Notes under the pieces: generated by a model
The model's database searches: none
What the model was told of the DNA's origin: nothing
The model's input: only the letters and a program-made list of their open reading frames with translations
Translations under genes and position numbers: made by a program
Assembly (NCBI GenBank): GCA_965248265.1
Contig: CBDFJF010000001.1
Span: forward strand, 2,752,001 to 2,816,000
DNA: 64,000 nt
Reading direction: 5' to 3'
Origin: Candidatus Latescibacterota bacterium
Lineage (GTDB): Bacteria > Latescibacterota > UBA2968 > UBA8231
Part shown: in pieces, positions 26,157-50,841 of the stretch
Layout of the letters: each line of letters starts with the position of its first letter
How positions within the stretch are numbered: the first letter of the stretch is position 1

Positions 26157-26942
26157 TCAAGCGGAGGCTCCGGAGTATCGTTTCAGACCTGCCTTCCAGA
26201 ACGCGCGTGATCCCACCAACAACGCTGCAGCCAATGCGATGGAGCCGGCCAGCAGGTCCGCATCCAAACGCCCAACCAGGGCCTGTGACGGCACGGTCAC
26301 CGCAAACGCGACCGGCACAAGAAAGGTCAGTGCTGCCTTCAGCCAACCTGGATAGATGGTGATCGGCCAGCGAGCGGCATCGTACATGCTGTGGAAGATC
26401 ATCAGAATGTTGCCGACACGGACGAACCAGAATGACATGGTCGCCAGGATGATCCAGAAGCTGTACATGATGGCGCCTCCCGCTGCCAAAGTCAGAGCGA
26501 ACTCTCCCATCGGTCGCCACCCCACCGACGCCCCCAGATGGTACAGGGCAACACTGATTATGATCAGTCCGGCGGCCACATCGATGATGCGCCAGACCCG
26601 GACCTGATTGACGCTGACGAGGACCTGCGCCTCCTCCGGCTTCGTGAGGATATAGTCCAGCGTTCCCTCCGTAACATCTTCGATCAGCTGCTCCATGCTG
26701 GGCTGAATCACCACTCCGATCAACCCCGCCATCATCGTGAAGACCCCCAATAGCACGACCAGTTGTGCCGGCTCCCAGCCGTTTAGGTTCTCGGTGTGAC
26801 TGTAGACGACCCCGACCGCTGCCAGTGACCAGGTGATGTTGAATCCCGTCTTGAACAACTGCATGACGAGGTTTGCCCGGTACTGCAGCTCGTTCATCAA
26901 GCCGATTCGAAAAAAGACAACGAGCAGCCGCAGCAGGCTCAT
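26157..26942 (-). CDS. ABC-2 family (DUF990-type) permease
   Basis: MSLLRLL start overlaps the upstream stop; ELQYRAN, GTLDYILTKP, ARWPITIYPGWLK, GLKRYSGASA. Confidence 0.85.
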   Translation of the reverse strand: MSLLRLLVVFFRIGLMNELQYRANLVMQLFKTGFNITWSLAAVGVVYSHTENLNGWEPAQLVVLLGVFTMMAGLIGVVIQPSMEQLIEDVTEGTLDYILTKPEEAQVLVSVNQVRVWRIIDVAAGLIIISVALYHLGASVGWRPMGEFALTLAAGGAIMYSFWIILATMSFWFVRVGNILMIFHSMYDAARWPITIYPGWLKAALTFLVPVAFAVTVPSQALVGRLDADLLAGSIALAAALLVGSRAFWKAGLKRYSGASA

Positions 26943-27733
26943 GCGCCCACCGCTGAGTAGCGTCGAGCAGCGCGGTGCCAGCACAGATTTAGCACACCCA
27001 GCGCCAGGACCAGCCAAATCGCCTGAGCCGCCAGGCCGATCATCGCTTGAGATTGAGAAACACGGCCCAACAACAACTCCACCGGGAAAGAGACCATCCA
27101 GCGGAAGGGCAACGCCGAGGCACCCACCTGCACCCATTCCGGCATCAGGGACAATGGCGCCACCTTGCCCGTCAAAAACATTCCGGTCACCCAGTACAGA
27201 TTGTTCAACCCGGAGGTATCCGTGACCCAAAAGGCCAGTAGGGCAACGGTCCACTCGACCGCGAAACGCATCAAGAAAGCGAGGACGACCGCCGGGACGA
27301 ATGCGACTAGAGCCCAACCCGGTGTGTCGAAGGCGGGCTCGAAGTACCATGTCAGAAGACCGGCGGCTGGCACCACGACGACGAGGGTCAGCAGCTTGTA
27401 GGCGATGTTGCTTGTCAGATCCCGGTGGATGGGATGCAGGGGCTGCAGCAGCAGGGGAGAAAAAGAACCCGAGCGCACACGCCATCCCATTTCGTGCATG
27501 TGCCAATCGAAGGTAACATGGTTAACCACCATGAAGACGATGTAGTAGGCCGCCAGCCCCGGCTCGTCAAAATCGCCGACGCTGCCGTCTCGGGAACGTG
27601 CCACCGTGATCCAGACGACGAGATAGACGACAGGCTGCAGCATCAATCCCAGCAGCCAGATCAGCATGGCTGCCCTGTACTGCAACATGACGGCAAGTTC
27701 GGTACGCAACAGGGACGCGTAGATCCTTCGCAC
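26939..27733 (-). CDS. ABC-2 family permease
   Basis: GTG start overlaps the ATPase TAG; MLQYRAA, VRSGSFSPLLLQP, PLSLMPEW..LPFRWM..FPV, RYSAVGA. Confidence 0.85.
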   Translation of the reverse strand: MRRIYASLLRTELAVMLQYRAAMLIWLLGLMLQPVVYLVVWITVARSRDGSVGDFDEPGLAAYYIVFMVVNHVTFDWHMHEMGWRVRSGSFSPLLLQPLHPIHRDLTSNIAYKLLTLVVVVPAAGLLTWYFEPAFDTPGWALVAFVPAVVLAFLMRFAVEWTVALLAFWVTDTSGLNNLYWVTGMFLTGKVAPLSLMPEWVQVGASALPFRWMVSFPVELLLGRVSQSQAMIGLAAQAIWLVLALGVLNLCWHRAARRYSAVGA

Positions 27734-28719
27734 TATTCCGCTTCCTGAGCGAAGACTTGCTCGATGACTTCCTCGATCGGAGGCTCCTGCACGGTCAGGT
27801 CGATGACCGGCAGCGCCGACAGCAGCTGACCCGTCAAGCTCGCCGCCGTCTCTTTGGGTACCAGCAGTGTGACCCGGGTGCCGTCGTGGTCGACGACTTC
27901 GCCGTACGAGCTCAGGTCGAGGCCTTCTTGATCCAGCTCGACTACGATCGTCTTGCGGGGTGAGAATTTCTCCACCAAAGCGCTCAGGGCGCCGTCGAAC
28001 AGCAGCTGTCCGTGGTGGATGACGAGGACGCGTTCGCACAGCGCCTCGACATCGGCCATGTAGTGGCTGGTTAGCAACACGGTGGCATCATAGAGCTTGT
28101 TGTAGGCGCCGATGAAGCTGCGGATCCGACGCTGCATCGTGACATCCAGACCGAGCGTGGGCTCGTCCAGGAAGAGGATACGCGGACGGTGGAGGAGCGC
28201 CGCGGCGACCTCGCACTTCATGCGCTCTCCCAGCGACAGATTGCGTACCGGTTTCTGCAGCAACTCTCCCAAATCGAGCAGCTGCGAAAGCCCGTCGACG
28301 GTCTCCCGGAACTGAGCCATCGGTATGCGGTAGATGGCGCGGTTGCGCTCGAAGGAGTCCGACACCGGGATGTCCCAGACAAGCTGGTTGCGATTGCCCA
28401 TCACCAGGGTGATCTGGCGCAGGAAGGAGCGCTCGCGCTTGAAGGGCTCGGCGCCCAGCACACTCACGGCGCCCGCAGAGGGGTTCAGCAGGCCGGACAT
28501 CATCTTCAGAGTCGTCGTCTTGCCGGCTCCATTGGGACCGAGAAAACCGACGATCTCACCCGAAGCCACCTCGAATGAAATCTCCTTGACCGCCTCCACT
28601 TCTTCGGTGCGACGGCGCACGACGCTCTTGAGTGCCGCGGACAGTCCGGGGTCGCGGACCGGAATCCGGTAGTTCTTGGACAGGTTCCGTACTGAGATCG
28701 GGCTGGAATCAACTCCCAT
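27733..28719 (-). CDS. ABC transporter ATP-binding protein
   Basis: GPNGAGKTT, LSLGERMK, LFLDEPT, LTSH. Confidence 0.93.
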   Translation of the reverse strand: MGVDSSPISVRNLSKNYRIPVRDPGLSAALKSVVRRRTEEVEAVKEISFEVASGEIVGFLGPNGAGKTTTLKMMSGLLNPSAGAVSVLGAEPFKRERSFLRQITLVMGNRNQLVWDIPVSDSFERNRAIYRIPMAQFRETVDGLSQLLDLGELLQKPVRNLSLGERMKCEVAAALLHRPRILFLDEPTLGLDVTMQRRIRSFIGAYNKLYDATVLLTSHYMADVEALCERVLVIHHGQLLFDGALSALVEKFSPRKTIVVELDQEGLDLSSYGEVVDHDGTRVTLLVPKETAASLTGQLLSALPVIDLTVQEPPIEEVIEQVFAQEAE

Positions 28720-28723
28720 TTCC

Positions 28724-31700
28724 CTATCCTGACTTGAGGGCTGGTAGCAATTTGGCTTGCATCGCCAACAGAGCGGCGATGGCGGCGGACGCCATTCCGG
28801 CCGCGACCACGAGACCCAGCGTAACCGCGAGTGATTTCCACGGCATTGCGGTTCCTCCCAGGTGAGGCAACACGGCCGCCAGTGCGCACCCGGTGCCCAG
28901 AACGACTCCGGTCAGCAACAGAACCCCACTCTCGGTCAGCAGCATACGATAGAGTCGTGTACGGGTGAAGCCGAAGGCTCGCTGAACCGCCAGTTCCCCG
29001 GTGCGTTCGAGCGCATTTCTGATCGAGACGATGGCCAGGCCGAGTGTCCCCAGAAGGAGACCGAGGCCACCTAGTGTCTGGAAGGTCGAAAGGTAGGTGT
29101 TCTCGACAGCCTGGAAACGCGCCGCCCGTTCGCTCGCTGCCATGACGTCGAAACCGTATGCCTCCAGGTCACGCTCAAGATCAACTGCCAGTCCCGCTGC
29201 ATCGAGCTCGGCGGGGACGTCGAAGGCATAGAAACCGAACCCGGATTCGGCCGGGAAATAGCGTTCAAAATTCTCCATAGACATCAGCAGTTCACTCTGG
29301 AAGACGCTGCGATCCAGGAGTCCGACCAGGAGCAACTCAACCTGGGCGCCATCAGGATTGACGTCCAGGGTCAGTCGGTCTCCCACATCGAGATGTAGAA
29401 TCCATCGAGCGGAGTTGTAGTCACCGAACACGGGAATCGTGCCGGGGCCCAGGTCGAGGTTTAACAACGACCAGGGATTCTCTTTTGCGACAACAGCCTG
29501 TGGGAAGGATTCCACTTGCTTGAAGTGGAAGCCGCCCCGTTGAATGAATTCATCAGGTACGCCCAGAACACGGGGACGCTCGGGTCTGTAGAGATTGAGG
29601 CAGCTTGCATCTTCGCCGGATCTGTTGCGAAAGGCGAACACTCGTGACTGCGACAATACACTCTTGACCCCGAGGGACAGCGCCAGTTCGTCGCGGCCAC
29701 TGCTGGTGGTCAAGCTCTGAAAAAGCGGGATCTCCGTTTCGGCCAGCAGAGCGAATCCTCCCGTTGTCGCTACATCCTTGCCGACATCATCGAAATCCCT
29801 GCCGCTGGCGCCGACGGCGACGATGACGAAACAGGCACACGCTATCAGAGAGACGGCCAGCATGCTGCGGCCCGGGTGCCGGCCTATGTTGCGCACCCCC
29901 ATGCGCACCCCGATACCTCCCAGCGTCGATATGGAAGAGGCGTTGACACGGACGCGCCCCTTCATCCACGACGAACACACGCTCAAACCACATCCCAGAA
30001 GCGCCGCACCGCTGAAGAAGAACAACCCAGCTGCGTGACTCGAGTCCGCCCCATTCGCCAGAAGAGCCCCTGCACCAGCGCAGAGCGCAAACAGGACAGC
30101 CACCGGTGACCGCCTGCGCCCTGTTGACTGAATCGACAGTGAACTGGCGCTACCGGCGAGCAGGGAGCGTACCGGCAGGCGTGAGTAGCGGCGTACGGCC
30201 ACGAGGATGGAAGCGGCCACGATGACGACAGAAAAAACAAGGCCACCGACAAGGCTGCTCGCCTCAACGTGCAGTTGCAGATCGGGGGTGCCGACGGCGT
30301 CCTGCCACAGGTGGCGCAGACCCGCCAGCATTGCCCATCCGTAGCCAAGGGAGCCGGCCATGCCGATGATTCCGCCGACAAGGGCGAGAGCGATCCCCTC
30401 CAGCAGGAAACGACGCCGGACCAACGCAACCGTGAATCCGACGGCCATGAGCAACCCCAACTCGCGCAGTCGCTGCTCAACGTTGAGCCTGAAGAGCAAT
30501 ACCACCAGTAACAGGGCAGCGGTGATGATGAACAGGCTGAAGCCGATGAAGAGCATGCTGAAATCGGTGGCCCCCTCAGCTGCTCTCAACCCCTGCTCTC
30601 GTACTGGCTGGAAAACGAAGCCTGCCTGCTGTGGTCGCAGTTGCTGCAGCAAAGCCCGTTCAAACAGGGCGGTCGTCGTCGCCAAGTCATTGTCCGGTGC
30701 GGCGGCGATGCGAAACGAGGTCATCTCTCCAAAGCGGTTGCTCCACATTCGCGCCCCTGCCTCGATCCCGACGAAGGCCTTAGGCGTTGCGCCATGCTGT
30801 TCCCAATAGGCCTCGTCGCGCGCGCGTATGCGATTGAGGTCGACGGGAAACGGCGTTGACCAGTCCCCAATGTTGCGCGCTCCCTGAATACCGGGATAGT
30901 CGGGTGTAAGGCCGCGATCCGCCCCTGAGCCCGTCATCGCCACGACACCACTCACCCTTAACCGTGTGTGGCGGGTTTGCAGCTGTTCATCCGGGTCGAC
31001 GATGTAGTAGCTGAGTGTGACGGAATCTCCTGCTGCCACCGCCAGATCTTCAGCAACCCATTCATTCACCAGGATCTCGTTGTCGTTGAGGGTGGGAGCC
31101 CTGGAGCCATCCCTCAGCTCAAGGCGCCCCAAAGTACGCGCTGCCTGGTCCAGTACGCCGGGATCGAGTGCCGTAACGGTCGAATAGGGTACGGATCCGT
31201 CATCGCTGGCGATCGCTGTCGCCATGTAGGTGAACACGCTGGCGTGGGGGGCCTGAACCTCAAGTGCAGCACGGCCGGCGGCGGCGCTGCTCGCTGCATC
31301 GATGAGAAAGCGTCGGCTCTCCAGTACGGCAGCATCAGAACCGACCCGCACGAACAGTCCGTAGTCTTCCAGGGTGAGAGCGGCATCCAAGGCCGCGGCG
31401 AGCTGCCCGCATCCGTCACTGGAACCGTCCTCGGCCAGGAGCAAGGCGTTGACCTTCCCCTGACGATCCAGCGCGGTCTCCAGGTCGTCCAGCGGCACGA
31501 AAATGTTCAGCGGCTGCGCTTGATGTGGTTGCAAACCAAAACGTCCTAGGCCGTCGTCTTCGACAACACGACGCAGGCGCAGCCGCAGACGTTGCACCAC
31601 GTCCGCGGAAGCACGTCTGCCGAACAGTGATTCACGCGGCACGGCCGTCTGGCGTTGAAAGGCAACGATCAGATCGTCACCTACTCGTGCGCCCAGTTGC

Positions 31701-32122
31701 TGTTGCAGAGAACGGTTGATGATGGCGGGGGGAAAGACGACACGGGCGCTGGATGCTGCCGGACCGGTGAAATCGAGCTCACCTCCCAGCATCCGGGCAA
31801 GGGCGGGATCGGCTCCTACGATTTGAACACGGGACGCCCGGGCTCTGCTCTGCACGTGCACGGCAGTCCCTGCCAGCAAAGTGGCGGGAACCACCTGCGC
31901 TCCTGACACGGTGGCCAGGTCAGCGGCGACACTTGCTCGGAAGAAACGCTCCGACACCAGAGCCTGGTCGATGGCGCCCAGACGCTCCAGGGTGATCTGG
32001 CGCAGACTGCCCCTGACAGAATCCCCGACGATGAGAGCGCCGGTCAATACAGAGGTCGCCACGGCGGCCCCGAGCGCCACCGACACGCTCAGACCGCGGT
32101 AGTACCTCAGACTTCGAAGCAC
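28724..32122 (-). CDS. Large duplicated MacB/FtsX-type ABC permease
   Basis: Two FtsX-like TM blocks (QRLRELGLLMAVGF; ERTGELAVQRAFGF) with large periplasmic domains. Confidence 0.85.
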   Translation of the reverse strand: MLRSLRYYRGLSVSVALGAAVATSVLTGALIVGDSVRGSLRQITLERLGAIDQALVSERFFRASVAADLATVSGAQVVPATLLAGTAVHVQSRARASRVQIVGADPALARMLGGELDFTGPAASSARVVFPPAIINRSLQQQLGARVGDDLIVAFQRQTAVPRESLFGRRASADVVQRLRLRLRRVVEDDGLGRFGLQPHQAQPLNIFVPLDDLETALDRQGKVNALLLAEDGSSDGCGQLAAALDAALTLEDYGLFVRVGSDAAVLESRRFLIDAASSAAAGRAALEVQAPHASVFTYMATAIASDDGSVPYSTVTALDPGVLDQAARTLGRLELRDGSRAPTLNDNEILVNEWVAEDLAVAAGDSVTLSYYIVDPDEQLQTRHTRLRVSGVVAMTGSGADRGLTPDYPGIQGARNIGDWSTPFPVDLNRIRARDEAYWEQHGATPKAFVGIEAGARMWSNRFGEMTSFRIAAAPDNDLATTTALFERALLQQLRPQQAGFVFQPVREQGLRAAEGATDFSMLFIGFSLFIITAALLLVVLLFRLNVEQRLRELGLLMAVGFTVALVRRRFLLEGIALALVGGIIGMAGSLGYGWAMLAGLRHLWQDAVGTPDLQLHVEASSLVGGLVFSVVIVAASILVAVRRYSRLPVRSLLAGSASSLSIQSTGRRRSPVAVLFALCAGAGALLANGADSSHAAGLFFFSGAALLGCGLSVCSSWMKGRVRVNASSISTLGGIGVRMGVRNIGRHPGRSMLAVSLIACACFVIVAVGASGRDFDDVGKDVATTGGFALLAETEIPLFQSLTTSSGRDELALSLGVKSVLSQSRVFAFRNRSGEDASCLNLYRPERPRVLGVPDEFIQRGGFHFKQVESFPQAVVAKENPWSLLNLDLGPGTIPVFGDYNSARWILHLDVGDRLTLDVNPDGAQVELLLVGLLDRSVFQSELLMSMENFERYFPAESGFGFYAFDVPAELDAAGLAVDLERDLEAYGFDVMAASERAARFQAVENTYLSTFQTLGGLGLLLGTLGLAIVSIRNALERTGELAVQRAFGFTRTRLYRMLLTESGVLLLTGVVLGTGCALAAVLPHLGGTAMPWKSLAVTLGLVVAAGMASAAIAALLAMQAKLLPALKSG

Positions 32123-32823
32123 TGACCGTCTCTCAACTCCAACCGGCGGCCGCAGCGCGCGGCGATGTCCATACTATGACTGACGACGATGAGCATGTTA
32201 TCCTCAGCCCGGTGAAGCTCGAACAAGAGTCCGGCAACAGCTTCGGCCGTGGAGTGGTCGAGGTTACCGGTCGGCTCGTCGCACAGGAGCAACCCGGGAC
32301 GATTCATCAGGGCCCGTGCCACGGCCGCACGTTGACATTCCCCACCCGAAAGCTCGGCTGGCGTATGGTGTGCCCGTTCTTCCAGGCCGACACCCTCCAG
32401 CAATTCCAGCCCGCGTGCACGCGCATCGGCATCGATGCGAGCAAAGGCCAGCACCGGCATGAGTACGTTTTCGAGCACGGAGTACTGCGGCAGCAACTGA
32501 TGATTCTGGAAGACAAAACCGATGCCCCGGTTTCTGAAGCGTGCCAACGCACCCTCTTGCAGAGAGAAAGGATCCTCGCCGTCAATGTCGATGTGCCCGT
32601 CGCTGGGTGGTTCCAAGGTGCCGATGATGTGGAGAAGGGTGCTCTTTCCAGAACCGGAGGGCCCGGTTATCGCCATCGACTCTCCAGCTTGCAAGCTGAA
32701 GCTAATGCCCTCGAGAACCCGTACCTCATCTTGCCCGCGGTCGAAGCCCTTGCACAGAGAGGCAACCTCCAGACTGGCCGGTCGATGATCCATAAGCCGC
32801 GATGGATGATCCATGAAGGTCAC
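32107..32823 (-). CDS. LolD/MacB-type ABC ATPase
   Basis: GPSGSGKST, IGFVFQNHQLL, LSGGECQR, LCDEPTGNLD. Confidence 0.93.
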   Translation of the reverse strand: MTFMDHPSRLMDHRPASLEVASLCKGFDRGQDEVRVLEGISFSLQAGESMAITGPSGSGKSTLLHIIGTLEPPSDGHIDIDGEDPFSLQEGALARFRNRGIGFVFQNHQLLPQYSVLENVLMPVLAFARIDADARARGLELLEGVGLEERAHHTPAELSGGECQRAAVARALMNRPGLLLCDEPTGNLDHSTAEAVAGLLFELHRAEDNMLIVVSHSMDIAARCGRRLELRDGQCFEV

Positions 32824-32831
32824 GGTGGCTG

Positions 32832-33257
32832 TCAGGCCGGCTTTGCTTCTATCTTGCCGCGTATCCCTGGGGGGATGGTGATCGCCTTCATCTCCTCACC
32901 TGGGTTGCAGCGGCAGCAGACTACGGTCAATTCGCCGTGCGCGATCTCAGTCTCCCCTCTCGAAAAGAGAAACTCGTAGGTCATCGATTTGTCGCCGATG
33001 CGGCGGACAGTCAGGTGGATGTCGAGTTCCTCTTCGAAATAGGCTGGGTTGGAGAAGGTGCACGACGACGCCAGACGCGGCCATCCGATGGTGTTGCCAT
33101 CCTCATCTTCTCCCCCGTGCACACACAACCCAAGCGAGCGCAGGAACTCGTGCTCTGCCTGCTCCATCAGAACGTAGAATCGGGAGAAGTGAACGATCCC
33201 GGCCATGTCGGTGTCGACGAACTCGATGCGACGCCGAGTGTCGTATTCATGAGCCAT
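32832..33257 (-). CDS. Hotdog-fold acyl-CoA thioesterase (4HBT/YbgC family)
   Basis: IEFVDTDMAGIVHFSRFYVLMEQAEHEF. Confidence 0.88.
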   Translation of the reverse strand: MAHEYDTRRRIEFVDTDMAGIVHFSRFYVLMEQAEHEFLRSLGLCVHGGEDEDGNTIGWPRLASSCTFSNPAYFEEELDIHLTVRRIGDKSMTYEFLFSRGETEIAHGELTVVCCRCNPGEEMKAITIPPGIRGKIEAKPA

Positions 33258-33275
33258 GAAGCCAGATCCCTCCGA

Positions 33276-33743
33276 TCAGGTTGGCCGGAACAGCGTCACC
33301 AGACAGGCGCCGGTGGCCGCCATGGCGATACCGAGGACAAAGGGCCAGTTCAGCGTGGCCAACCCACCGGCCGGCGGGTGCACGATCATCGCCAGTACGG
33401 CGTTGACGATGGGTGCCCCGGCGAAGACGATCGACATCACTACCGGAGGCGTGCCCTTGGCACCGAACGCCAGGATGACTCCCAGGGCGCCAAGGGCGCC
33501 GGCAATGCCGGCTGCCGTGCTCCACACCACTCCCCTGCTGGCGAAACTCCAATCGGCATCGTTCAGTTTGAGGATCAACAGTGAACCCAGAACACCGGCC
33601 ATCAGGTAGGCCAGACCGACGAACAGGAAGGCCTTGTAGCGACCGTTGATCGGATCCCCCATCGCCATCTGGCCCGTGTGCAGGAGGACGCCGTAGGTCC
33701 CCCAGCACAACACACTCATACCTGCAAAGATATACCAGGTCAT
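33276..33743 (-). CDS. Small 4-5 TM membrane protein (half-DMT-like)
   Basis: WGTYGVLLH, GALGALGVILAF, VMSIVFAGAPIVNA; strong GGAGGGGG RBS. Confidence 0.75.
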   Translation of the reverse strand: MTWYIFAGMSVLCWGTYGVLLHTGQMAMGDPINGRYKAFLFVGLAYLMAGVLGSLLILKLNDADWSFASRGVVWSTAAGIAGALGALGVILAFGAKGTPPVVMSIVFAGAPIVNAVLAMIVHPPAGGLATLNWPFVLGIAMAATGACLVTLFRPT

Positions 33744-33773
33744 TTCCCCCTCCCCTTTTCTCTTGTTGCTGCG

Positions 33774-38024: not shown

Positions 38025-38029
38025 GGCCC

Positions 38030-39364: not shown

Positions 39365-39445
39365 CTGGGGTGGTCAACTGCAAACAGACGATCTCGGACA
39401 TGTCCCGCACGTAGGCACTTCGGTGGATGAAGTGTGCCGTCGTCA

Positions 39446-40795: not shown

Positions 40796-40801
40796 GGGGA
40801 A

Positions 40802-44482: not shown

Positions 44483-44811
44483 TCAGCTACTCACCTGTGA
44501 CTCTGGTGATACCATTTCCGATTGCTCAAATATCGATTGAGTGGGGGATAGTCTTGCCATATACCGTTGCCGTTGATGGTGTTGGTTCAGCCCTTTCCTA
44601 AACTGCCAGTCGGTCTTGTTCTTGTTTGTTGCTCTCCTTGGTACCGTCTTGGTGTTTCTGTTGACGTCTTAGGTGCTTGCCGTTGGTGTTTGGTGATGTC
44701 TCTGGTTTTGACGTTGCAACTTCACTCTTGTTTCTGCTGGTTTGCTGATACTTCCCCAAGAGAGTGGACACCTCGAAGCGCCAAGTTAAATTTCTGGCAG
44801 GAGGTGTTCTT

Positions 44812-45099
44812 ATGTCACGCAAGTATGATCGTGAGTTTAAGCTCGAGGCCATTCGCCTGGCCGCAGAAGAAGGGGTATCGGCCCGAGGGGTCGAGCAACG
44901 ATTGGGTTTAAGTGCAGGCATTATCAGTCGTTGGAAGAGAGAATTGAAGGTCCAAGGAGATGAAGCCTTCCCAGGTACCGGCCATTTAGGTGATCACGAC
45001 GAGGAGGTCCGCCGTTTGCGGCGTGAGCTGGCGCGGGTGTCCCAGGAACGAGATATCCTAAAAAAGGCGGCGGCCTTCTTCGCCAACGAGTCCAGATGA
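44812..45099 (+). CDS. IS3 transposase OrfA
   Basis: AGGAGG RBS; MSRKYDREFKLEAIRL...ERDILKKAAAFF; A6G -1 frameshift motif at 45060-45066. Confidence 0.9.
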   Translation: MSRKYDREFKLEAIRLAAEEGVSARGVEQRLGLSAGIISRWKRELKVQGDEAFPGTGHLGDHDEEVRRLRRELARVSQERDILKKAAAFFANESR

Positions 45100-45965
45100 G
45101 GTATCGCTTCATCGAGGTGGAGAAGGCGATGTACCCGGTCACTATGTTGTGTCGCGTGCTGCGGGTGTCGCGTAGCGGTTTCTACGCCTGGCAGCAGCGC
45201 CCGATCAGTCCTCGAGCTGAGCAGACTCGGCGACTGGATGTCGAGATCAACAAGTTGTTTGAAGCCAGCAAGCGGCGCTCCGGTAGCCCAAAGATCACCC
45301 GCGCCCTGATAGACGGAGGCTGGCAGGTGGGCGAGAATCGCGTTGCACGGCGCATGCGTGTGTTGGGTCTGCGTTCGATTGTGCGACGCCGTTTCAAGGT
45401 GACGACCAACTCGCAACATCGATTTGCGGTGGCGCCGAACCGTTTGCAGCGCGATTTCACCGCACAGCGCCCCAATCAAGTGTGGGTCAGCGACCTGACC
45501 TACCTCAGCGTCGGTCGCGGCTGGTTGTATTTGGTCGTCGTCATCGACCTGTACTCCAGGCGCGTGGTGGGTTGGGCGTTGAGCTCGGCACTGGATCACC
45601 GCGTGGCGCTGGTCGCGCTGCAGCGGGCTGTAGCTCAACGTCGTCCGCCGAGGGGTCTGATCATCCATTCCGATCGCGGCGTTCAATACGCCTGCACCGC
45701 GTTCACTAACTGGGTCAGCAAACACGGCTTTGTGCAGAGTATGAGCCGTAAGGGCGACTGCTGGGATAACGCCGTGGCTGAGTCCTTCTTCCATCTGCTC
45801 AAGACCGAGTTGACCTACCACGAACACTGGCTCAACTACCGGGCCGCGTATCGCAGCCTGTTCGACTACATCGAGATTTTTTACAATCGAGAAAGGAGTC
45901 ATTCCACCCTGGATTACGCAACACCCGCAGCATTCGAGCAGCATTCAACCAAACTTGCTGCTTGA
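45096..45965 (+). CDS. IS3 transposase OrfB (rve/DDE)
   Basis: WVSDLTYL, DLYSRRVVGW, HSDRGVQY, CWDNAVAESFF..LKTE, FYNRERSHSTL. Confidence 0.93.
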   Translation: MRYRFIEVEKAMYPVTMLCRVLRVSRSGFYAWQQRPISPRAEQTRRLDVEINKLFEASKRRSGSPKITRALIDGGWQVGENRVARRMRVLGLRSIVRRRFKVTTNSQHRFAVAPNRLQRDFTAQRPNQVWVSDLTYLSVGRGWLYLVVVIDLYSRRVVGWALSSALDHRVALVALQRAVAQRRPPRGLIIHSDRGVQYACTAFTNWVSKHGFVQSMSRKGDCWDNAVAESFFHLLKTELTYHEHWLNYRAAYRSLFDYIEIFYNRERSHSTLDYATPAAFEQHSTKLAA

Positions 45966-46066
45966 CGGTGTCCATTTTTCCGGGGGAGTATCACCCGAAG
46001 CCGCGACGAAGCCCGCCGCGGGCAAGGAGCACACGGGGACGAGCCCACCAACACGCGGACCCACCC

Positions 46067-47140
46067 CTAGTACACCCCCACAGTAACCGACTCCCTCAAC
46101 TCACTAAGCAACCTCAAATCCCGCACTCCATCCCACGGATACTCCTCAATCGGCTCAGCCCGCTCCGCCTCATCCCGCTCCAAAAACCGCGGCATAAAGA
46201 ATTCCTTCGTCAGCGTCGTCAACATAACGCGCCCGGTCTCACCGTAATCGACCTGCCGCTCGGTATCCTGCGGATCAACCAACTCGATAACGGCTCGAGG
46301 TTGCGGCGGGTAGTAAATGATGGCGTAGTCATCGGCTGGATCGAACGGCTTACAGTGCGCGAGACCCATCAGGGTGTTGCCGTAGGTTGGAATGAACTCG
46401 ATACCCGGGACTAGCTCTTCGCGCGCGAAACGATGGAATTGCGCGTCCATTTCCGTGCCGCCGCAGAAGATGCCGGTGATGCCGGCCTTGGGCAGCGAGA
46501 TCTTCTCAGACAGGGCTTCCAGCAGACGTGGAGTCGTGAACAGACAGCGAATGGAATCATGCGCCCGCAGGATCTTCAGCGCCTGGTCAACGACATGACT
46601 CTTGTAGGCTTCCAACTCCTGGGTTTTTTGCTGCTTGATGAGGACGTTGACCCAACGCGGATCGAGGTCGACGAAGAAGCAGATACCACCCCGAATCTGC
46701 GCCAGGTGTTCGACGGCCAGACGCAGTCGCCGCGGTCCAGTCGGACCGACCATGAGCCAGTCACTTCCGTGTGGGAAGCCGTCCTCTGGGAGAAACTCAC
46801 TGAAGCGCTCGTAGTCGAGTTTGAAATCGTGGACGTTGATACGGCTCTTGGGTACCCCTGTCGATCCGCCAGTCTCGAACACGTAGACCGGTTCGTCGGC
46901 GTACGCGCGGGGCACCCAGCGTCGGACCGGTCCACCGCGCAACCACGAGTCTTCGAAATGACCGAGGCGTCGCAGATCGTCGTAAGAGTTGATCTGGGTA
47001 CGGGGGTCAAAGTCCAACCCCTTGGCGAAATCCAGCCAGAAGTCGCATCCAGTGGCCGGATCGAAGTGCCATTGCACGATCTCGCGCACGTGCTGGTCGA
47101 GGTGCACGCTTGCCTCGCCGATTGAACCTGGCCTTTGCAT
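46067..47140 (-). CDS. EhpF-like adenylate-forming enzyme (phenazine-modifying/LuxE-PaaK related)
   Basis: WHFDPATGCDFW, FETGGSTGVPK, PTGP, VDLDPRWV, TTPRLL, GGTEM, YGNT, YGETGRV, ERD, terminal GVY. These motifs match Pantoea EhpF as recalled from memory. Confidence 0.75.
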   Translation of the reverse strand: MQRPGSIGEASVHLDQHVREIVQWHFDPATGCDFWLDFAKGLDFDPRTQINSYDDLRRLGHFEDSWLRGGPVRRWVPRAYADEPVYVFETGGSTGVPKSRINVHDFKLDYERFSEFLPEDGFPHGSDWLMVGPTGPRRLRLAVEHLAQIRGGICFFVDLDPRWVNVLIKQQKTQELEAYKSHVVDQALKILRAHDSIRCLFTTPRLLEALSEKISLPKAGITGIFCGGTEMDAQFHRFAREELVPGIEFIPTYGNTLMGLAHCKPFDPADDYAIIYYPPQPRAVIELVDPQDTERQVDYGETGRVMLTTLTKEFFMPRFLERDEAERAEPIEEYPWDGVRDLRLLSELRESVTVGVY

Positions 47141-48582
47141 TACTCACCTTCGATGGCGAACAAGCGGTTCCTGGAAGCGATGTACAGGACGCCGTCCTCG
47201 ACCACGGGAGTCGTGTAGATGGAGCTACCCATGTTGATCTCATTCAAGACTTCCAGCGTTTTTCCGGCCTTCAGTATGGCGACATCGCCGTCCTCGTCAC
47301 CGACATAGACCATGCCATCGGCCACCAGGGTCGAGCCCCAGACTGCGGCGAAGCTGTCGTAGACCCAATGCTTCTTACCGGTTTGGAGATCAAGGCAGTA
47401 GACGAAACCCGAAAGATCGGCCGCGTAGAGGAGGCCGTCCTGTATGGAAACCGTCGACATGGTCCGGTGGAAATCCTCCCCGCCAACGTGCCACACACCA
47501 CCACTGTCAGTGATGTCTCCTGTTTTTGTCGCATCAATGCACCACAGATGACCGATCCCCTCACCGTGTTCAGGGTCCTGACCCACGCCGACGTAGACCC
47601 GGTCGCCGTGGATGACGGGAGTTGAAACGATGTTGTTGCGGGTGCCACGTCCGCCCAGCTCCCACTCGGAGTCCTTCGGATTGCAGTCAAATTTCCAGAT
47701 GAGTTTGCCTGTCAGAGGTTCCAATGAGTAAACCCATCCGTCTCCTCCGGGAAAGACCACCTGTGCCTTGCCCTTGACGATGCCGTAAGCTGGATTCGAC
47801 CACTGTCCGTGCAGGATCCCCTCACCGGGCGAAGCATCTTCCCATACCACCTCACCCGTGTGCTTGTTCACGGCGATGAAGCTGGGGGCAAAGGGAGAGG
47901 GGATGGCCACATGGCCTTCGTCAACGCCATTTGATGTAACGACGAAAAGCAGGTCCCCGGCCCCGACCGGCGAGCAGGTTGCCAGGTTGTGCGGAAAGAC
48001 ATTGAGTTCCTCCATCATGTCCATCTTCCAAATCACATCCGCATCAATTCCGGTAGTGTCTTTTTCAGTTATGAACGGCCCGTCGTTCTCTCCGTCGGCG
48101 AATCCCTCGGCGTCAATGCAAACGACTTCGCAGCGATTCGATATGTAATAGACACGGCCGTCTTCGATAAAGGGCGTCGAGCACACGCCTTGCCGGGGCC
48201 AGTCGTTGACGCGTCCGGCCGCAAGTTTGGTGTGGGTGGCTTGCCACTGAAAACGGCCATCGGCACGACCGAAGGCCATCACCACTCCCCGATCGCCGAC
48301 CAGTGCGGGATTGCGCAGGCCCTGGTTGTTGGTACCGACGAACACCTGGTTTCCGTAGATCAACGGACCGGCGTAGGTCTGCGAGCCCAGTGGGGCGCTC
48401 CAGCGAATGCCAGCGCCGGTTTCCGTGTTCCAATTAACCGGTAGTCCACTGGCCGATGCGACCATGTTGCGCTCCGTCGTAAAGCCCCACATCGCCGCAT
48501 CGTCGGAGCCCACGTCGACCACTCCCACCAGCAGGGAGACAATTGCTACTATGGTGTCTTTGTGCGATAGGCGCTGCGTCAT
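47140..48582 (-). CDS. PQQ-type beta-propeller protein
   Basis: Signal-like N-terminus; GVCSTP, HNLATCSP, HGQWSNP, QDPEHGEG, WGSTLVADG.VYVGDEDG. Confidence 0.82.
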   Translation of the reverse strand: MTQRLSHKDTIVAIVSLLVGVVDVGSDDAAMWGFTTERNMVASASGLPVNWNTETGAGIRWSAPLGSQTYAGPLIYGNQVFVGTNNQGLRNPALVGDRGVVMAFGRADGRFQWQATHTKLAAGRVNDWPRQGVCSTPFIEDGRVYYISNRCEVVCIDAEGFADGENDGPFITEKDTTGIDADVIWKMDMMEELNVFPHNLATCSPVGAGDLLFVVTSNGVDEGHVAIPSPFAPSFIAVNKHTGEVVWEDASPGEGILHGQWSNPAYGIVKGKAQVVFPGGDGWVYSLEPLTGKLIWKFDCNPKDSEWELGGRGTRNNIVSTPVIHGDRVYVGVGQDPEHGEGIGHLWCIDATKTGDITDSGGVWHVGGEDFHRTMSTVSIQDGLLYAADLSGFVYCLDLQTGKKHWVYDSFAAVWGSTLVADGMVYVGDEDGDVAILKAGKTLEVLNEINMGSSIYTTPVVEDGVLYIASRNRLFAIEGE

Positions 48583-48621
48583 GTCGTCTTTCTCTTCCGC
48601 TTGCGAGTCGGGATTGCTCGT

Positions 48622-50841
48622 TTAGTCTGCCGCCACCATCACGTTGTCATAGTAGAGCAGTGCCGCTGAGTAACCGTAGAGTCCCGGACTACCTTGGCGA
48701 TTGGGCAGGGGATCCGTGGCCGTGATCGTCCATTGTTCCGGCTCATCCGCGTCCCTCCTCCACACCTTTCCGCGAACGACGGCCTCCCCGGACTCGGTGT
48801 CGACCCGCATCTTCACCGTGTACCACACGCCCATTTCCCAGACAAAATCGATGGTCTTCTCCATGCGAAGAGCCGCCGCCCATGACCGCACCTGCAGCCG
48901 CTGATGGTTTCCCATCAGGTCGAGGGTGTAGCGTTGCGCGATCAGCCCGACGTCGGGACGATTGCGCTTGCCCTGCGTCCCCATGACATCCGCCTGCACG
49001 GTGTAACCGGACATCGACGGAGGACCGATGTAGACGTTCGACCGCTGCAGGCCCCGTTTGGCCAGACCCTTCATGAGAACGCGCTCTCCGTCAAGGTCGA
49101 CGACGGAGAACTTGCCGCCTCCGGAGCCGATCCAGGAGGCGGGAGCCGGGTTGGATCCGGCTTCAGCGCTCATGCTGTCAAACGTCTCTGCCTGGTCACC
49201 GGAAGGCACCACTCGAACTCGAGCACGACTGGTTGCCGAACTCCCTTTGAGCTGCACCACGATGGTGCCGACTGAGCGACCAGCCGTTGCCGTGAAGACT
49301 CCACGGTCTAGGCTGCCTGACAGATCTTCCAGCGCCCACTCCAGGTTGTCGTCCTCGCTCATGGAGACGGGCGATCCGGTGTCATCGAATCCCCTCACTT
49401 CGAAGCGCGCCGTCGCCCCGGAGGGCATCAGCACTTCCGCCGGCACGATCTGGATGTGAGTTGGATGATTCGGGGAAACCGCTGCCGTTGCCACATCAGA
49501 CGCTGGAACCGCTGGCTTGTCATTCCCGTTGCCCAGACAGTACAGCCCCTCTTCGGTGGCGAAGTAGACGTTGCCGTAGCCTACCGCAGGTGAGCCAAAA
49601 ATTTCGGCGGCTCGACCATCCGACGTGGTGATCTGGTCACTGTCGAGGACGGATGCCGCGTCTTCGCTGACGTCCAGGATCTTCAACGTGCCATTCACTT
49701 CGGGGACGAACAATTTGCCATCCGCCCACACAGGCGATCCCTTGCCCACCCGGCCGACATTTTGTACCCACTGTTCCTCGCCGCTGGTCGCATCCAGGCA
49801 GTGCAGGTTGGCCGAGTTGTCGACGATGTAGAGCAGGCCATCATGAACGACAGGCGAGGTGTAGCCGGCCGGTACGCCGTCAGCGCGCCAGACCTCATGG
49901 CTGGCCGTCAGGTCGCCGGTTCCGCTACCGTCAATGCAGACGACGCGCCCCATGGTGGTCGTGTCCAGATTCTCCTCGCTGTGCGCGGCGTAGACTCGAT
50001 CTCCAGCGACCACGACGGATACGTTGAGGCCTCTGTTACTGAGACCAAAACCCCACACTTTGCGACCGGTGTGGACTTCAATCCCGTACACGGCGCCATC
50101 GGCATTGCCGCCGATGAGCAGGCGGCGGCCATCGATCTGGGCCATCACCGGAGTCGAGTAGGTCGTATCAAGTGGACGACCACCCGGTGTGGAAATCCAG
50201 ACGACGTCGCCACTGCGCTTGTCGAAAGCGAAGTAACGATGCCGCGGCACAGCCTGTTCACCCCAGCTGCTGTTGAGAAAGCTGACGATGACCAGGTCGC
50301 CATCCACGACTGGCGTGTGGATGCGACCGCCATAACCGGAGATGCGGCGGAACTCTTCGGTCAACGAGCGCGACCAGACGACCTCGCCGTCTCTGTCGTA
50401 GCACAGCAACAACCCCTGGACGCCGTGGACGTAGAGGTTGCCCGTTTCGGGATCAGCCGCCGGACTCGACCAGCCGACTCTGTTGAAGGGAATCGTGGTG
50501 TGGAAGACGTTGAAGCGATGCTCCCACAGCAATTCGCCGGTGAAGGCATCGTAGCAAGCGGTGCGTTCCTGCCTTTTAATGCCCTCGCCAACGCGCCCGA
50601 GTGCGCAGACCCTGCCATCGACGATGACAGGAGTGGACCGTCCTGTGAATGGCACCTTCCACAATTGGCCGTCGCCATCGACGCTCCAGGTATCGACCAG
50701 CCCGGTCTCGAGTGATACACCGCTTTGATGCGGTCCTCTCCAACCGGGCCATTGCGCGGGCGCCGGAGCGGTAGCGGCGCCAACCAGGATGGCGCCAAAG
50801 GCCAGCATCGTCGACAGTCGCGTGGTCCTGAAAGGCTTCAT
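48622..50841 (-). CDS. Secreted PQQ-type beta-propeller with C-terminal Ig and lectin/LamG-like domains
   Basis: Signal peptide, WPGWRGP, GRSTPV, YSTP, SPV blades; C-terminal YTVQADV...WYTVKMRV..GKVW..GSPGLYG..YYDNV. Confidence 0.82.
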   Translation of the reverse strand: MKPFRTTRLSTMLAFGAILVGAATAPAPAQWPGWRGPHQSGVSLETGLVDTWSVDGDGQLWKVPFTGRSTPVIVDGRVCALGRVGEGIKRQERTACYDAFTGELLWEHRFNVFHTTIPFNRVGWSSPAADPETGNLYVHGVQGLLLCYDRDGEVVWSRSLTEEFRRISGYGGRIHTPVVDGDLVIVSFLNSSWGEQAVPRHRYFAFDKRSGDVVWISTPGGRPLDTTYSTPVMAQIDGRRLLIGGNADGAVYGIEVHTGRKVWGFGLSNRGLNVSVVVAGDRVYAAHSEENLDTTTMGRVVCIDGSGTGDLTASHEVWRADGVPAGYTSPVVHDGLLYIVDNSANLHCLDATSGEEQWVQNVGRVGKGSPVWADGKLFVPEVNGTLKILDVSEDAASVLDSDQITTSDGRAAEIFGSPAVGYGNVYFATEEGLYCLGNGNDKPAVPASDVATAAVSPNHPTHIQIVPAEVLMPSGATARFEVRGFDDTGSPVSMSEDDNLEWALEDLSGSLDRGVFTATAGRSVGTIVVQLKGSSATSRARVRVVPSGDQAETFDSMSAEAGSNPAPASWIGSGGGKFSVVDLDGERVLMKGLAKRGLQRSNVYIGPPSMSGYTVQADVMGTQGKRNRPDVGLIAQRYTLDLMGNHQRLQVRSWAAALRMEKTIDFVWEMGVWYTVKMRVDTESGEAVVRGKVWRRDADEPEQWTITATDPLPNRQGSPGLYGYSAALLYYDNVMVAAD

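Follow-up and report, generated by a model that had tools for sequence, protein, structure and literature searches.

A widely conserved gene cluster of Latescibacterota with an EhpF/EhpG-like enzyme pair, a double-FtsX transporter and secreted propellers

Introduction

EhpF and EhpG are encoded in the ehp cluster of Pantoea, which directs synthesis of the phenazine D-alanylgriseoluteic acid (AGA). Bera et al. are said to have proposed in 2010 that both proteins turn a carboxylate into an aldehyde through an adenylate, and we take the substrate of EhpF to be a phenazine (aryl) dicarboxylate. One phenazine paper describes the conversion of phenazine-1,6-dicarboxylate (PDC) to AGA by EhpF-O. The present study concerns a gene cluster with an EhpF/EhpG-like pair in a stretch of 64,000 nucleotides (hereafter the window) of a Candidatus Latescibacterota bacterium (assembly GCA_965248265.1, contig CBDFJF010000001.1, positions 2,752,001 to 2,816,000 of the forward strand). 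The genome comprises 7.32 Mb in 2 contigs and is 92.28% complete. The cluster consists of 19 co-oriented genes on the minus strand (26157-50871 of the window), interrupted once by a copy of an IS3-family insertion sequence (IS).

Many of the genes next to the pair belong to well described families. Flavin-dependent halogenases are recognised by the signatures GxGxxG, a catalytic Lys and WxWxIP. They need activated carbons and spare unactivated alkyl chains, and the short enzymes of the CndH/PltA type usually act on carrier-tethered substrates. For class C radical SAM enzymes the methylation of sp2 carbons is described. Type VII ABC systems are believed to take up their substrates on the periplasmic side.

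Recently, Loureiro et al. (bioRxiv 10.64898/2026.08.03.742642) described a "Halo_AMP" pseudoclass of clusters, defined by a flavin halogenase together with an AMP-binding enzyme and the absence of a polyketide synthase (PKS) or non-ribosomal peptide synthetase (NRPS) core. According to the passages of the preprint drawn on here, these clusters are sponge-associated and rich in genes for PQQ-like proteins, radical SAM enzymes, glycosyltransferases, thioesterases, ABC transporters and transporters of the TonB-dependent type. Latescibacterota account for 9%, Poribacteria for 8% and Acidobacteriota for 16% of the families, and the same passages report no MIBiG match and no product. No other description was found in a literature search that covered few subscription journals, which leaves absence from print unproven.

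In this study, we conclude from its co-conservation that the cluster is one conserved functional unit and no chance neighbourhood. We consider it possible (probability about 0.4) that it encodes a carrier-free pathway which tailors a small aromatic acid, reduces it to the alcohol and attaches a sugar before handing the product over to the periplasm, whereby we infer the substrate, the order of the steps and the role of the propellers.

Results

Conservation of the cluster

The first three genes encode two propellers of the pyrroloquinoline quinone (PQQ)-like type and the EhpF-like adenylating enzyme (adenylase). The other 16 encode, in this order, the EhpG-like reductase, an iron-containing alcohol dehydrogenase (Fe-ADH), a third propeller, a HemN-like radical SAM enzyme, a PaaK-like ligase, a flavin-dependent halogenase, a DUF3311-like peptide, a sodium:solute symporter (SSS), a GT4 glycosyltransferase, a 155-aa membrane protein with five predicted helices, a thioesterase, a LolD-like ABC ATPase, a double-FtsX permease and an ABC-2 set of one ATPase and two permeases. 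An earlier reading of the window made from the sequence alone (the original prediction) had described about 19 co-oriented genes in this order, many with overlapping stop and start codons. A listing of the open reading frames (ORFs) and scans with Pfam and NCBIfam reproduced gene number and order, and by ORF coordinates six neighbouring gene pairs overlap by 1-17 nt. The scans also agreed with all earlier family calls except LuxC, whereby the PaaK-, HemN- and LolD-like proteins score below the curated NCBIfam cut-offs.

A protein search with the EhpF-like enzyme returned at least 8000 relatives. In a scan with one genome per species at least 573 relatives were confirmed by tblastn, and the best 80 loci were used. 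By label (phylum names of relatives are those of the record titles throughout) 46 of these 80 loci belong to Poribacteria, 21 to Acidobacteriota lineages and 7 to Latescibacterota; the rest are Gemmatimonad-labelled (3), Phycisphaerae (1) or "uncultured bacterium" (2). Identity of the EhpF-like protein at these loci is 64-80%. Genes were counted within 10 kb on each side of the EhpF anchor at a minimum of 35% identity and 50% coverage, and many loci are cut by contig ends. Under these terms the 480-aa propeller is present at 64, the 749-aa propeller at 62 and the EhpG-like gene at 57 of the 80 loci, followed by Fe-ADH (29), the 378-aa propeller (25), the radical SAM enzyme (16), GT4 (12), the first ATPase (10), the ligase (7), the permease (5) and the halogenase (3). 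The low counts of the distal genes are bounded by the 10-kb flank.

Concerning gene order, a Latescibacterota-labelled chromosome (G001) keeps the whole arrangement, from a dehydratase-amidase gene upstream of the cluster to the last ABC-2 permease, at 49-79% identity. A further Latescibacterota-labelled genome (G002) carries the genes from the first propeller through the double-FtsX permease, without symporter and without ABC-2 genes. The planctomycete G183 has, in the window's order, two propellers, adenylase, reductase, Fe-ADH, radical SAM enzyme, halogenase and symporter; at the low-GC3 planctomycete loci and at high-GC loci only genes anchored by tblastn were considered. In a sample of Planctomycetota the adenylase was found in 28 of 151 genomes at E <= 1e-60. 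The Vicinamibacterales-labelled genome G004 encodes a divergent adenylase with reductase, GT4, ATPase, permease, propeller, 155-aa protein, radical SAM enzyme, halogenase and thioesterase, and the Blastocatellia-labelled G003 only adenylase, reductase, GT4, ATPase, permease, several propellers and the 155-aa protein. The core that recurs in Acidobacteriota comprises the EhpF-like and EhpG-like enzymes, GT4, the LolD-like ATPase, the double-FtsX permease, the five-helix protein and PQQ-like propellers, with the GT4 gene directly after the EhpG-like gene. Hereby the earlier impression that similar gene sets occur in Planctomycetota and Acidobacteriota is confirmed (G183 and the 28 Planctomycetota genomes, G003, G004). 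Absence of the set from other genomes had been named as grounds for rejecting the original prediction; the order recurs in G001, mostly in G002 and G183, and as a core in Acidobacteriota, and this refutation fails.

In Poribacteria-labelled genomes the cluster is eroding into dispersed genes, with all parts kept. In one of them (G005) the permease orthologue and the adenylase are about 1.9 Mb apart. A Bryobacterales-labelled and a Phycisphaerae-labelled genome (G173, G174) also contain the EhpG-like gene, in these cases unlinked. As a separate observation, Poribacteria-labelled loci (e.g. L003) have 1-5 kb of other genes between adenylase and reductase, e.g. for a Vgb-lyase-like propeller, and a sulfatase gene just downstream.

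Four genes were followed through 168 genomes of the window's phylum, a set that includes G001 (as G108) and G002 (as G066). The EhpF-like gene is present in 98 and the EhpG-like gene in 96 of the 168 genomes (both E <= 1e-60), the halogenase in 96 (E <= 1e-90) and the double-FtsX permease in 103 (E <= 1e-60), and almost all matches are single-copy. These genomes are relatives and not independent, and no statistic was drawn from the counts. All four genes give the same genus tallies for g24 (15/15), g31 (21/21), g11 (0/8) and g15 (0/5), and in the 31 genomes of genus g12 the EhpF-like, EhpG-like, halogenase and permease genes were found 30, 29, 30 and 30 times. In families f1-f4 the genus pattern of the permease equals that of the EhpF-like gene. 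Disagreements between the four genes fall mostly in fragmented genomes, with the exception of six genomes (f7, f10) that have only a distant permease homologue (34-37% identity). The complete genomes G107, G135, G146 and G147 contain all four genes, although more than 1 Mb separates the halogenase from the adenylase. That the genes occur or are missing together, also when unlinked, is the pattern expected of one unit which joins an enzymatic and an export half.

These data bear directly on the alternative that two or three unrelated modules (enzymes, propellers, transporters) are mere neighbours. The ABC-2 and SSS genes are unconserved and the Poribacteria-labelled genes are dispersed, with the permease of G005 far from the adenylase, as such an arrangement would have it. 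However, near-identical presence and absence of four genes over 168 genomes, unlinked cases included, and an order kept in at least three phyla have already largely refuted this alternative for the core, and we regard it as extremely unlikely.

The EhpF/EhpG-like pair

The EhpF-like enzyme (46067-47140, minus strand, 357 aa) is encoded by a gene that is single-copy in the genome. In the PDB it matches EhpF (3l2k/3hgu, E 2.6e-45), which bears out the earlier EhpF call; residues 16-346 align to residues 22-354 of the 366-residue 3l2k chain, and phmmer gives a 158-bit match to EhpF. The protein consists of the N-terminal domain of ANL enzymes alone: the match to Pfam AMP-binding extends to position 373 of the 384 positions of the profile, while AMP-binding_C is lacking. 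Orthologues have a length of 351-367 aa. The P-loop E89-T-G-G-S-T-G-x-P-K98, which we take to be the ANL A3 motif, and the block Y253-G254-N255-T256 are invariant in 22 of 22 sequences.

The EhpG-like reductase (43058-44482, minus strand, 474 aa) belongs to the aldehyde dehydrogenase (ALDH) fold (Pfam PF00171 Aldedh, E 3.5e-12). A PDB search with this protein gave ordinary aldehyde dehydrogenases only, and tblastn found the EhpG gene of a Pantoea agglomerans plasmid with 25% identity (E 5e-27). On this plasmid phz-like genes are followed by an AMP-binding (EhpF) and an aldehyde-dehydrogenase-family (EhpG) gene with touching stop and start. Pairs of this type are adjacent by coordinates on Streptomyces and haloarchaeal plasmids too, where "arylcarboxylate reductase" is the name annotators have given to some EhpF-like proteins. 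The literature found on EhpF and EhpG consists of phenazine genome papers only, and none was found on "arylcarboxylate reductase". The original prediction had called the reductase EhpG/LuxC-like. Its EhpG part stands by the match to the Pantoea gene; for the LuxC part, the Aldedh family is the sole match, with no LuxC or LuxE family in Pfam at E <= 0.001 and no NCBIfam match.

In the 23 aligned sequences of the reductase Cys289, in the block G-R-S-C-x-N-A-S, and the motif H253-G-x-G are invariant. His253 presumably stands where the general-base Glu of the ALDH motif ELGG sits. By motif positions as we know them, the protein appears to fit the thioester-forming type of the ALDH fold, with the catalytic Cys kept and the general-base Glu lost.

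A model of the complex of both proteins reached an ipSAE of 0.75 (best control 0.00), which is the model's own confidence and no measure of binding. This value is reached by 116 of 157 solved complexes and by 2 of 215 mismatched pairs, a comparison that holds roughly, as our own alignments were used. At least 71% of the contacts are common to the runs, and the pLDDT of the partners is at least 90. The modelled interface involves S34-D44 of the reductase, invariant in 23 sequences, and T203-E212 and E230-A239 of the adenylase, invariant in 22. The model supports docking of the EhpF-like adenylase on the N-terminal block of the EhpG-like reductase. Taken together, homology, invariant residues and model support, and do not prove, that the pair is a carrier-free two-protein reductase which converts an acid to the aldehyde.

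Tailoring enzymes and the absence of a biosynthetic core

The halogenase (36750-38033, minus strand, 427 aa) belongs to the Trp_halogenase family and is of the short CndH/PltA/Bmp2 type. All top PDB matches are halogenases (8zop, E 6.5e-67; CndH 3e1t, E 1.1e-55; PltA 5dbj, E 3.8e-53; also Bmp2, Mpy16 and CmlS). G19-x-G21-x-x-G24, K80 and W225-x-W227-x-I229-P230 are invariant in six of six orthologues, taken from Latescibacterota-, Planctomycetota- and Vicinamibacterales-labelled records, and K80 aligns to the Lys of "fpikrg" in CndH. By these residues, which agree with the earlier call of a flavin halogenase, the flavoprotein qualifies as a genuine halogenase by the usual criteria. The carrier protein that goes with halogenases of the PltA/Bmp2/CndH type is lacking here, PF00550 being absent from the window.

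The radical SAM enzyme (39446-40795, minus strand; Radical_SAM E 2.7e-21, HemN_C E 9.9e-9) is HemN-like over its full length and of the class C type. PDB matches are HemN (1olt, E 1.9e-33) and the methyltransferase NocN (9p2u, E 1.2e-27), and the scores for HemN (TIGR00538, 188.7 against a cut-off of 324.95) and ChuW/HutW (193.6 against 400) stay below the cut-offs. C67, C71 and C74 (CxxxCxxC) and the stretch G118-P122 are the same in all 18 sequences aligned. The PaaK-like aryl/acyl-CoA ligase (38030-39364, minus strand, 444 aa; AMP-binding_C_2 E 1.3e-18) is a family-level relative, with 246.7 against a cut-off of 646.3 for TIGR02155 and 271.5 against 700 for NF041878. For the group III Fe-ADH (41935-43074, minus strand; Fe-ADH E 1.9e-43, ADH_Fe_C E 1.2e-39) every NCBIfam equivalog scores below its cut-off. 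The hotdog thioesterase of the 4HBT/YbgC type (32832-33257, minus strand; 4HBT_2 E 4.9e-10) has orthologues inside the clusters of G001, G002 and G004.

The GT4 glycosyltransferase (33774-35063, minus strand; Glycos_transf_1 E 3e-26) has 429 aa from MRVAYIAAG with the start at 35063. PDB sequence searches of GT4, the radical SAM enzyme and the double-FtsX permease gave generic family relatives only. The N-terminus of GT4 (about 35010-35063) contains a motif G-x-x-x-M-Y-C-G-x-C-x-x-D-N that is invariant in 14 of 14 orthologues (C110 and C113 in long-ORF numbering). We know of no characterised GT4 enzyme with such a two-Cys N-terminal motif.

The original prediction had stated that the cluster lacks a phenazine, PKS or NRPS core, and this agrees with our searches. 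The PhzA/B-type family PF03284 gave 0 matches at E <= 0.01 in the 92.28%-complete genome, in which PhzE, PhzD, PhzF and PhzG were not searched genome-wide, and no phz-like family appeared in the Pfam and NCBIfam scans of the window. Likewise, none of the PKS/NRPS families (carrier, ketosynthase, condensation) was found among the 22 window proteins scanned. PF00550 (PP-binding) has two matches in the genome (C2:794708 and C1:2065065), none of them within the window (C1:2752001-2816000). Only two matches in 7.3 Mb suggest that the genome has almost no PKS/NRPS capacity, and the cluster may be one of its few loci for specialised chemistry. As there is no PKS, NRPS, terpene or ribosomally synthesised and post-translationally modified peptide (RiPP) core, standard core-gene rules would not flag the locus. 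The earlier claim of an uncharacterised pathway holds insofar as no product is known; the claim that rules would miss it holds in part, as the preprint by its custom rule of halogenase plus AMP-binding enzyme, in the passages drawn on here, reports such clusters.

As proposed in these passages for Halo_AMP clusters, the product might also be a small halogenated peptidic compound or alkaloid, with adenylating enzymes that activate aromatic amino-acid-derived acids for amides and a halogenase that brominates. The enzyme pairing equals the rule of the preprint, the phyla are the same, and PQQ-like, radical SAM, glycosyltransferase, thioesterase and ABC genes are shared. However, the focus cluster of the preprint passages, CC A, has P450 genes, which are absent from the window; the cluster occurs also in metagenome-assembled genomes of Acidobacteriota, Gemmatimonad-labelled bacteria and Planctomycetota without a sponge label in the record names; and beyond the PaaK-like ligase no peptide-bond-forming enzyme was found. 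We therefore hold such a product to be very unlikely.

Breakdown or detoxification of an aromatic acid after import would draw on much of the same inventory: PaaK-like ligase, 4HBT thioesterase, ALDH-fold protein, Fe-ADH and symporter are all present, and the enzymes could run oxidatively as in phenylacetate-type degradation, with glycosylation and efflux for detoxification. However, the cluster contains no genes for a ring-attacking oxygenase, an epoxidase or beta-oxidation, and the ALDH-fold protein has His253 at what we take to be the position of the general-base Glu that oxidising ALDHs need. Moreover, the reductase is modelled as docked to the adenylase, the symporter is unconserved and the halogenase signatures are intact. 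A degradative role is accordingly highly improbable.

Secreted propellers

All three propellers have a signal-peptide-like N-terminus. The first (48622-50871, minus strand, 749 aa; Pfam PQQ_2 E 3.2e-30) probably starts at 50841, the second in-frame ATG, while the full ORF reaches 50871. Its C-terminal 259 aa match 0 Pfam families at E <= 1. The third (40802-41938, minus strand, 378 aa) is a Beta-prop_ACSF4 protein (PF13570, 195.9 bits against a cut-off of 133).

The second propeller (47140-48582, minus strand, 480 aa; Pfam PQQ_2) is encoded directly upstream of the EhpF-like gene and is the most conserved of the three. Its model has eight blades (pLDDT 82.5), and the nearest fold is the cofactor-free BamB with a TM-score of 0.74-0.79 on the target at 18-19% identity; cofactor-free enzymes such as tetrathionate hydrolase, and PQQ dehydrogenases, stand at lower ranks of the fold list. 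Over 21 sequences with at least four phylum labels identity is 55-73%, and every listed orthologue starts with a signal-peptide-like segment. Many His, Asp, Glu and Cys residues are invariant in these sequences. Among the invariant positions are H117/K119/R124-P129, H198-N199, D221-E222-H224, H258-Q260-W261, Q335-D-P-E-H-G-E-G342 and E430-D-G-D433. Judged from this alignment, the invariants exceed what a scaffold needs, which would set the protein apart from a passive BamB-type scaffold.

Compared with the PQQ-dependent dehydrogenase family TIGR03075 the propellers reach 24-84 bits at a cut-off of 480. A search for the PqqC family gave 0 matches in the genome, but also in 0 of 14 control genomes. 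In some genomes frames of 833-835 aa look like a fusion of propeller and adenylase. At the one locus that was read, this is a spurious frame in very GC-rich DNA, and the propeller (475 aa, with a signal peptide) is encoded by a gene of its own; a fusion was therefore rejected.

The operon might make and export a halogenated, methylated aryl glycoside that is bound by the co-conserved secreted propellers, which we think quite doubtful. The whole would then amount to a hitherto unknown periplasmic propeller machine, loaded with a cofactor or ligand and based on a carrier-free reductase, a notion we likewise treat as quite speculative.

Transport genes and the 155-aa membrane protein

The genes of the ABC ATPase (32107-32823, minus strand) and the double-FtsX permease (28724-32122, minus strand, 1132 aa) overlap by 16 nt. 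The ATPase is of the LolD/YbbA/MacB type and nearest to LolD, YbbA, MacB and DevA; its NCBIfam scores (LolD TIGR02211, 245.7 against a cut-off of 307.75; YbbA, 207.8 against 336) lie below the cut-offs. The permease, of the YbbP/MacB-like type VII ABC kind, matches FtsX twice, at residues 527-650 and at about 1001-1131, and has two putative large regions outside the cytoplasm; its match to PDB MacB is weak (E 6.5e-6). Regarding the label MacB, the FtsX/type VII part is retained; the protein is rather a YbbAP-like double-FtsX permease, with the equivalogs below their cut-offs. One clear orthologue each was found in five of five genomes tested. A genome of the window's family (G106) has two full-length double-FtsX permeases (C31:41363-44674 and C96:3833-7228) with 53% and 52% identity. 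Each of the other listed genomes has a single copy, and the few further double entries are gene pieces split over contigs.

The 155-aa membrane protein (33276-33743, minus strand) lies outside all Pfam and NCBIfam families, for which no match was obtained. It has at least 7039 homologues at E <= 0.001. Its model shows five helices (pLDDT 67), and Foldseek gave no PDB fold match at E <= 0.001; a DMT/SMR-like fold is a conjecture. Since type VII ABC systems presumably act periplasmically, we assign passage of the inner membrane to this protein. The sole support for this putative inner-membrane translocator is the presence of orthologues inside the clusters of G001, G002, G003 and G004.

The sodium:solute symporter (35063-36526, minus strand; PF00474 E 2e-36) and the DUF3311-like peptide with two transmembrane segments (36523-36753, minus strand; PF11755 E 1.2e-5, 25.7 bits against a cut-off of 30) are accessory. 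The stop of the DUF3311-like gene overlaps the symporter start by 4 nt. The pair is found in the window, in G001 (symporter identity 78%) and in the planctomycete G183 (symporter identity 46%), and not at the loci of G002, G003 and G004. The ABC-2 ATPase (27733-28719) and two ABC2_membrane_6 permeases (about 26939-27733 and 26157-26942; all minus strand), identified with Pfam and NCBIfam, are accessory or mere neighbours; among the extended loci they are syntenic in G001 only, where synteny ends after the last ABC-2 gene.

Uptake and efflux genes of other kinds occur in relatives. G001 has a TonB-dependent receptor gene between radical SAM enzyme and ligase (L091 19-1215), a TonB-like outer-membrane barrel lies inside the G004 cluster (L096 8320-11625) with a TRAP system beside it, and three HlyD-type genes adjoin a Bryobacterales-labelled cluster. 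The symporter/DUF3311 pair, the ABC-2 set and the TonB-dependent receptors of relatives are lineage-specific additions. The original prediction had put import at the start of the pathway and both transporters at its end. As uptake and efflux genes are recurrent but varied, import is no fixed first step, and the symporter pair is restricted to the window, G001 and G183; of the export set, the MacB/FtsX-type ABC transporter is a core member and the ABC-2 set is confined to the window and G001.

The same variety leaves room for a small molecule that is secreted and recaptured, either metallophore-like or a signal, with MacB-type export as for pyoverdine by PvdRT and re-uptake through TonB-dependent receptors, SSS or TRAP. 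The receptor of G001, the barrel and TRAP system of G004, the symporters of the window, G001 and G183 and the HlyD-type genes would fit it. TonB-dependent transporters are also named for Halo_AMP clusters in the passages drawn on here (bioRxiv 10.64898/2026.08.03.742642). However, the Pfam scan of the window cluster gave no gene for a receptor, a membrane-fusion or an outer-membrane factor, no catechol, hydroxamate or thiazoline enzymes were identified, and the importers differ in kind and are unconserved. A recaptured compound is, in our estimate, improbable.

The transporter and the propellers also fit an envelope glycolipid pathway. Hereby the enzyme pair would reduce a fatty acid to the aldehyde and alcohol in a LuxC/LuxE-like manner, and GT4 would make an alkyl glycoside or a related glycolipid, a course we judge rather unlikely. 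To the same degree it is conceivable that the five-helix protein flips this lipid, the Lol/YbbAP-like ABC transporter pulls it out of the inner membrane and the outer membrane receives it from the BamB-like propellers, with halogenase, radical SAM enzyme and ligase optional. In favour are the ATPase nearest to LolD, YbbA and DevA, the two-FtsX permease, the BamB-like propeller fold, retention by whole genera and the minimal Acidobacteriota core of reductase pair, GT4, ABC transporter, membrane protein and propellers. Moreover, passages of the preprint report that Halo_AMP clusters match BrtI of the exporter cassette of bartoloside, a halogenated glycolipid (bioRxiv 10.64898/2026.08.03.742642). 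However, no LuxC/LuxE match was found at E <= 0.001 and the ligase is PaaK-like, not FadD-like. EhpF, the sole characterised relative, presumably acts on an aryl dicarboxylate, and the chemistry of flavin halogenases leaves unactivated alkyl chains alone.

The IS3 copy and the upstream gene

The IS3-family element (44746-45993, plus strand, 1,248 bp; NF033516 transpos_IS3 E 2.6e-103) is outside the pathway. Its orfA (44764-45099) and orfB (45096-45965), both on the plus strand, lie in the spacer between the EhpF-like and EhpG-like genes and cut the first three genes off from the other 16, the expression of which this copy may blunt. The genome contains six copies with 99.9-100% identity, hence the element was recently active. 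The ends are imperfect terminal inverted repeats, and a target-site duplication was not evident at the ends read. At this place a contig from another sample with the same genes, roughly 92-95% identical, counts about 395 letters, against about 1,445 in the window. The near-identical copies and this contig without insertion indicate that the insertion is recent.

Concerning RNA, six runs contained 5-7% of the sampled words, and in one run depth was found in 9 of 30 bins, with the longest pieces over the IS. Contigs from seawater metagenomes and metatranscriptomes share with the stretch mostly IS-like sequence, and depth peaks over the IS. An assignment of habitat from sequencing runs was discarded, as the small seawater shares roughly equal those expected from the IS by itself.

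Directly upstream of the cluster (50846-52645, minus strand) an Amidase_2 domain (AmpD-like N-acetylmuramoyl-L-alanine amidase) is fused to an enolase-superfamily domain. The latter is galactonate/mannonate-dehydratase-like (308.3 bits against a cut-off of 311). The fusion gene has the same position in G001 (62% identity), and a separate enolase-superfamily gene adjoins the Bryobacterales-labelled cluster too.

Discussion

A candidate pathway

In the carrier-free pathway that we propose, the PaaK-like ligase would activate a small, probably aromatic, carboxylic acid as the CoA thioester. Due to the usual carrier-bound substrates of the short halogenase type and the absence of a carrier from the cluster, we propose the CoA thioester as the handle on which the halogenase would halogenate an activated ring carbon. 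The HemN-like radical SAM enzyme would add or rearrange carbon on the CoA-bound acid, most likely by C-methylation, and the hotdog thioesterase would free the tailored acid. The EhpF-like enzyme has no thioester-forming domain, hence it would make the acyl-adenylate, and Cys289 of the docked reductase would take over the acyl group. The EhpG-like reductase would release the aldehyde with NAD(P)H, the Fe-ADH would reduce it to the alcohol and GT4 would glycosylate the alcohol. Thereafter, the five-helix protein would carry the product across the inner membrane, the LolD-like ATPase and the double-FtsX permease would expel it from the periplasmic side, and the three secreted BamB-like propellers would receive, process or hold it.

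Several points weigh against this pathway. Family analogy is the basis for the aromatic acid, for the order from acid through aldehyde and alcohol to glycoside and for the chemistry of the radical SAM enzyme, and the Fe-ADH is nearest to lactaldehyde and sulfoacetaldehyde enzymes, which act on small polar aldehydes. The 155-aa membrane protein has no detectable relative of known function, and the docking of the pair is expressed by a confidence of the model itself. In G003 no ligase, halogenase, radical SAM enzyme or Fe-ADH was found within the 40 kb examined; a core without tailoring genes suggests that the tailoring half is dispensable for the job of the core. The EhpF-like enzyme keeps 65-80% identity between phyla and is retained by whole genera, which resembles an envelope or housekeeping trait more than a typical specialised metabolite. 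Type VII ABC systems and BamB-like propellers, for their part, are familiar rather from the biology of lipids, lipoproteins and the envelope.

The cluster belongs to those orphan gene sets that are kept more widely in several poorly studied phyla, with the EhpF-like gene in 98 of 168 genomes of its own phylum, in 28 of 151 sampled Planctomycetota genomes and in many Poribacteria-, Acidobacteriota- and Gemmatimonad-labelled records. By sequence, the pair is distantly related to EhpF and EhpG, and its gene context is entirely different. If it works as modelled, it would be a general two-protein carboxylic acid reductase free of phosphopantetheine, of interest for enzymology and biocatalysis. The constant company of secreted BamB-like propellers and a double-FtsX ABC transporter hints at an unexplored path that leads from chemistry in the cytoplasm to the cell envelope. 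Planctomycetota and Acidobacteriota have cultured members, and should a cultured strain carry the set, a bench test would be possible. Compared with the passages of the Halo_AMP preprint drawn on here, our analysis adds the carrier-free reductase pair with its modelled docking, the secretion and unusual conservation of the propellers, the assignment of the double-FtsX permease and the 155-aa protein to the core, the spread beyond sponge symbionts and the phyletic link of both halves.

Comparison with known systems

The cluster shares with the Pantoea ehp cluster a truncated ANL adenylase encoded beside an ALDH-fold protein. In contrast to that system, identity is low, the genome has no phzA/B-type gene, and the pair is accompanied by propellers, GT4, a type VII ABC transporter, a halogenase and a radical SAM enzyme. 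In LuxC/LuxE, too, a stand-alone acyl activator hands the acyl group to a Cys of a separate ALDH-fold reductase without a carrier; the window pair differs by the lack of a LuxC/LuxE family match (E <= 0.001) and of luciferase and LuxD. Carboxylic acid reductases (CARs) have the net ATP- and NAD(P)H-dependent conversion of acid to aldehyde in common with the proposed pair. They need a phosphopantetheinylated carrier and a reductase of the short-chain dehydrogenase/reductase (SDR) type, whereas the window pair would be carrier-free and has the ALDH fold.

Type VII ABC systems (YbbAP-TesA, MacAB-TolC, LolCDE, DevBCA) likewise combine a LolD/YbbA/MacB/DevA-like ATPase with an FtsX permease that has large extracytoplasmic domains; the window differs in having no membrane-fusion or outer-membrane partner. 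Like YbbP, the permease unites two FtsX halves in a single chain, with a thioesterase gene nearby. Unlike YbbP (about 800 aa) it has 1132 aa, and all named equivalogs score below cut-off; unlike TesA of YbbAP-TesA, which is periplasmic, the thioesterase of the window is a cytoplasmic hotdog protein. To our knowledge, BamB-like propellers as co-conserved periplasmic partners are a feature of no known type VII ABC system. The propeller machine considered above would parallel the biogenesis of PQQ quinoproteins and of quinohemoprotein amine dehydrogenase in its set of radical SAM enzyme, flavoprotein, ABC exporter and periplasmic propeller.

With Halo_AMP clusters the locus shares the pairing of halogenase and AMP-binding enzyme, the freedom from PKS and NRPS, the phyla and similar partner genes, as far as passages of the preprint describe them. 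Cluster CC A differs by its P450s, which the window lacks, and the passages drawn on do not single out an EhpF/EhpG-type pair, a double-FtsX permease or propeller secretion. They treat the clusters as sponge-specific natural-product genes, whereas the core described here reaches Acidobacteriota, Gemmatimonad-labelled and Planctomycetota records.

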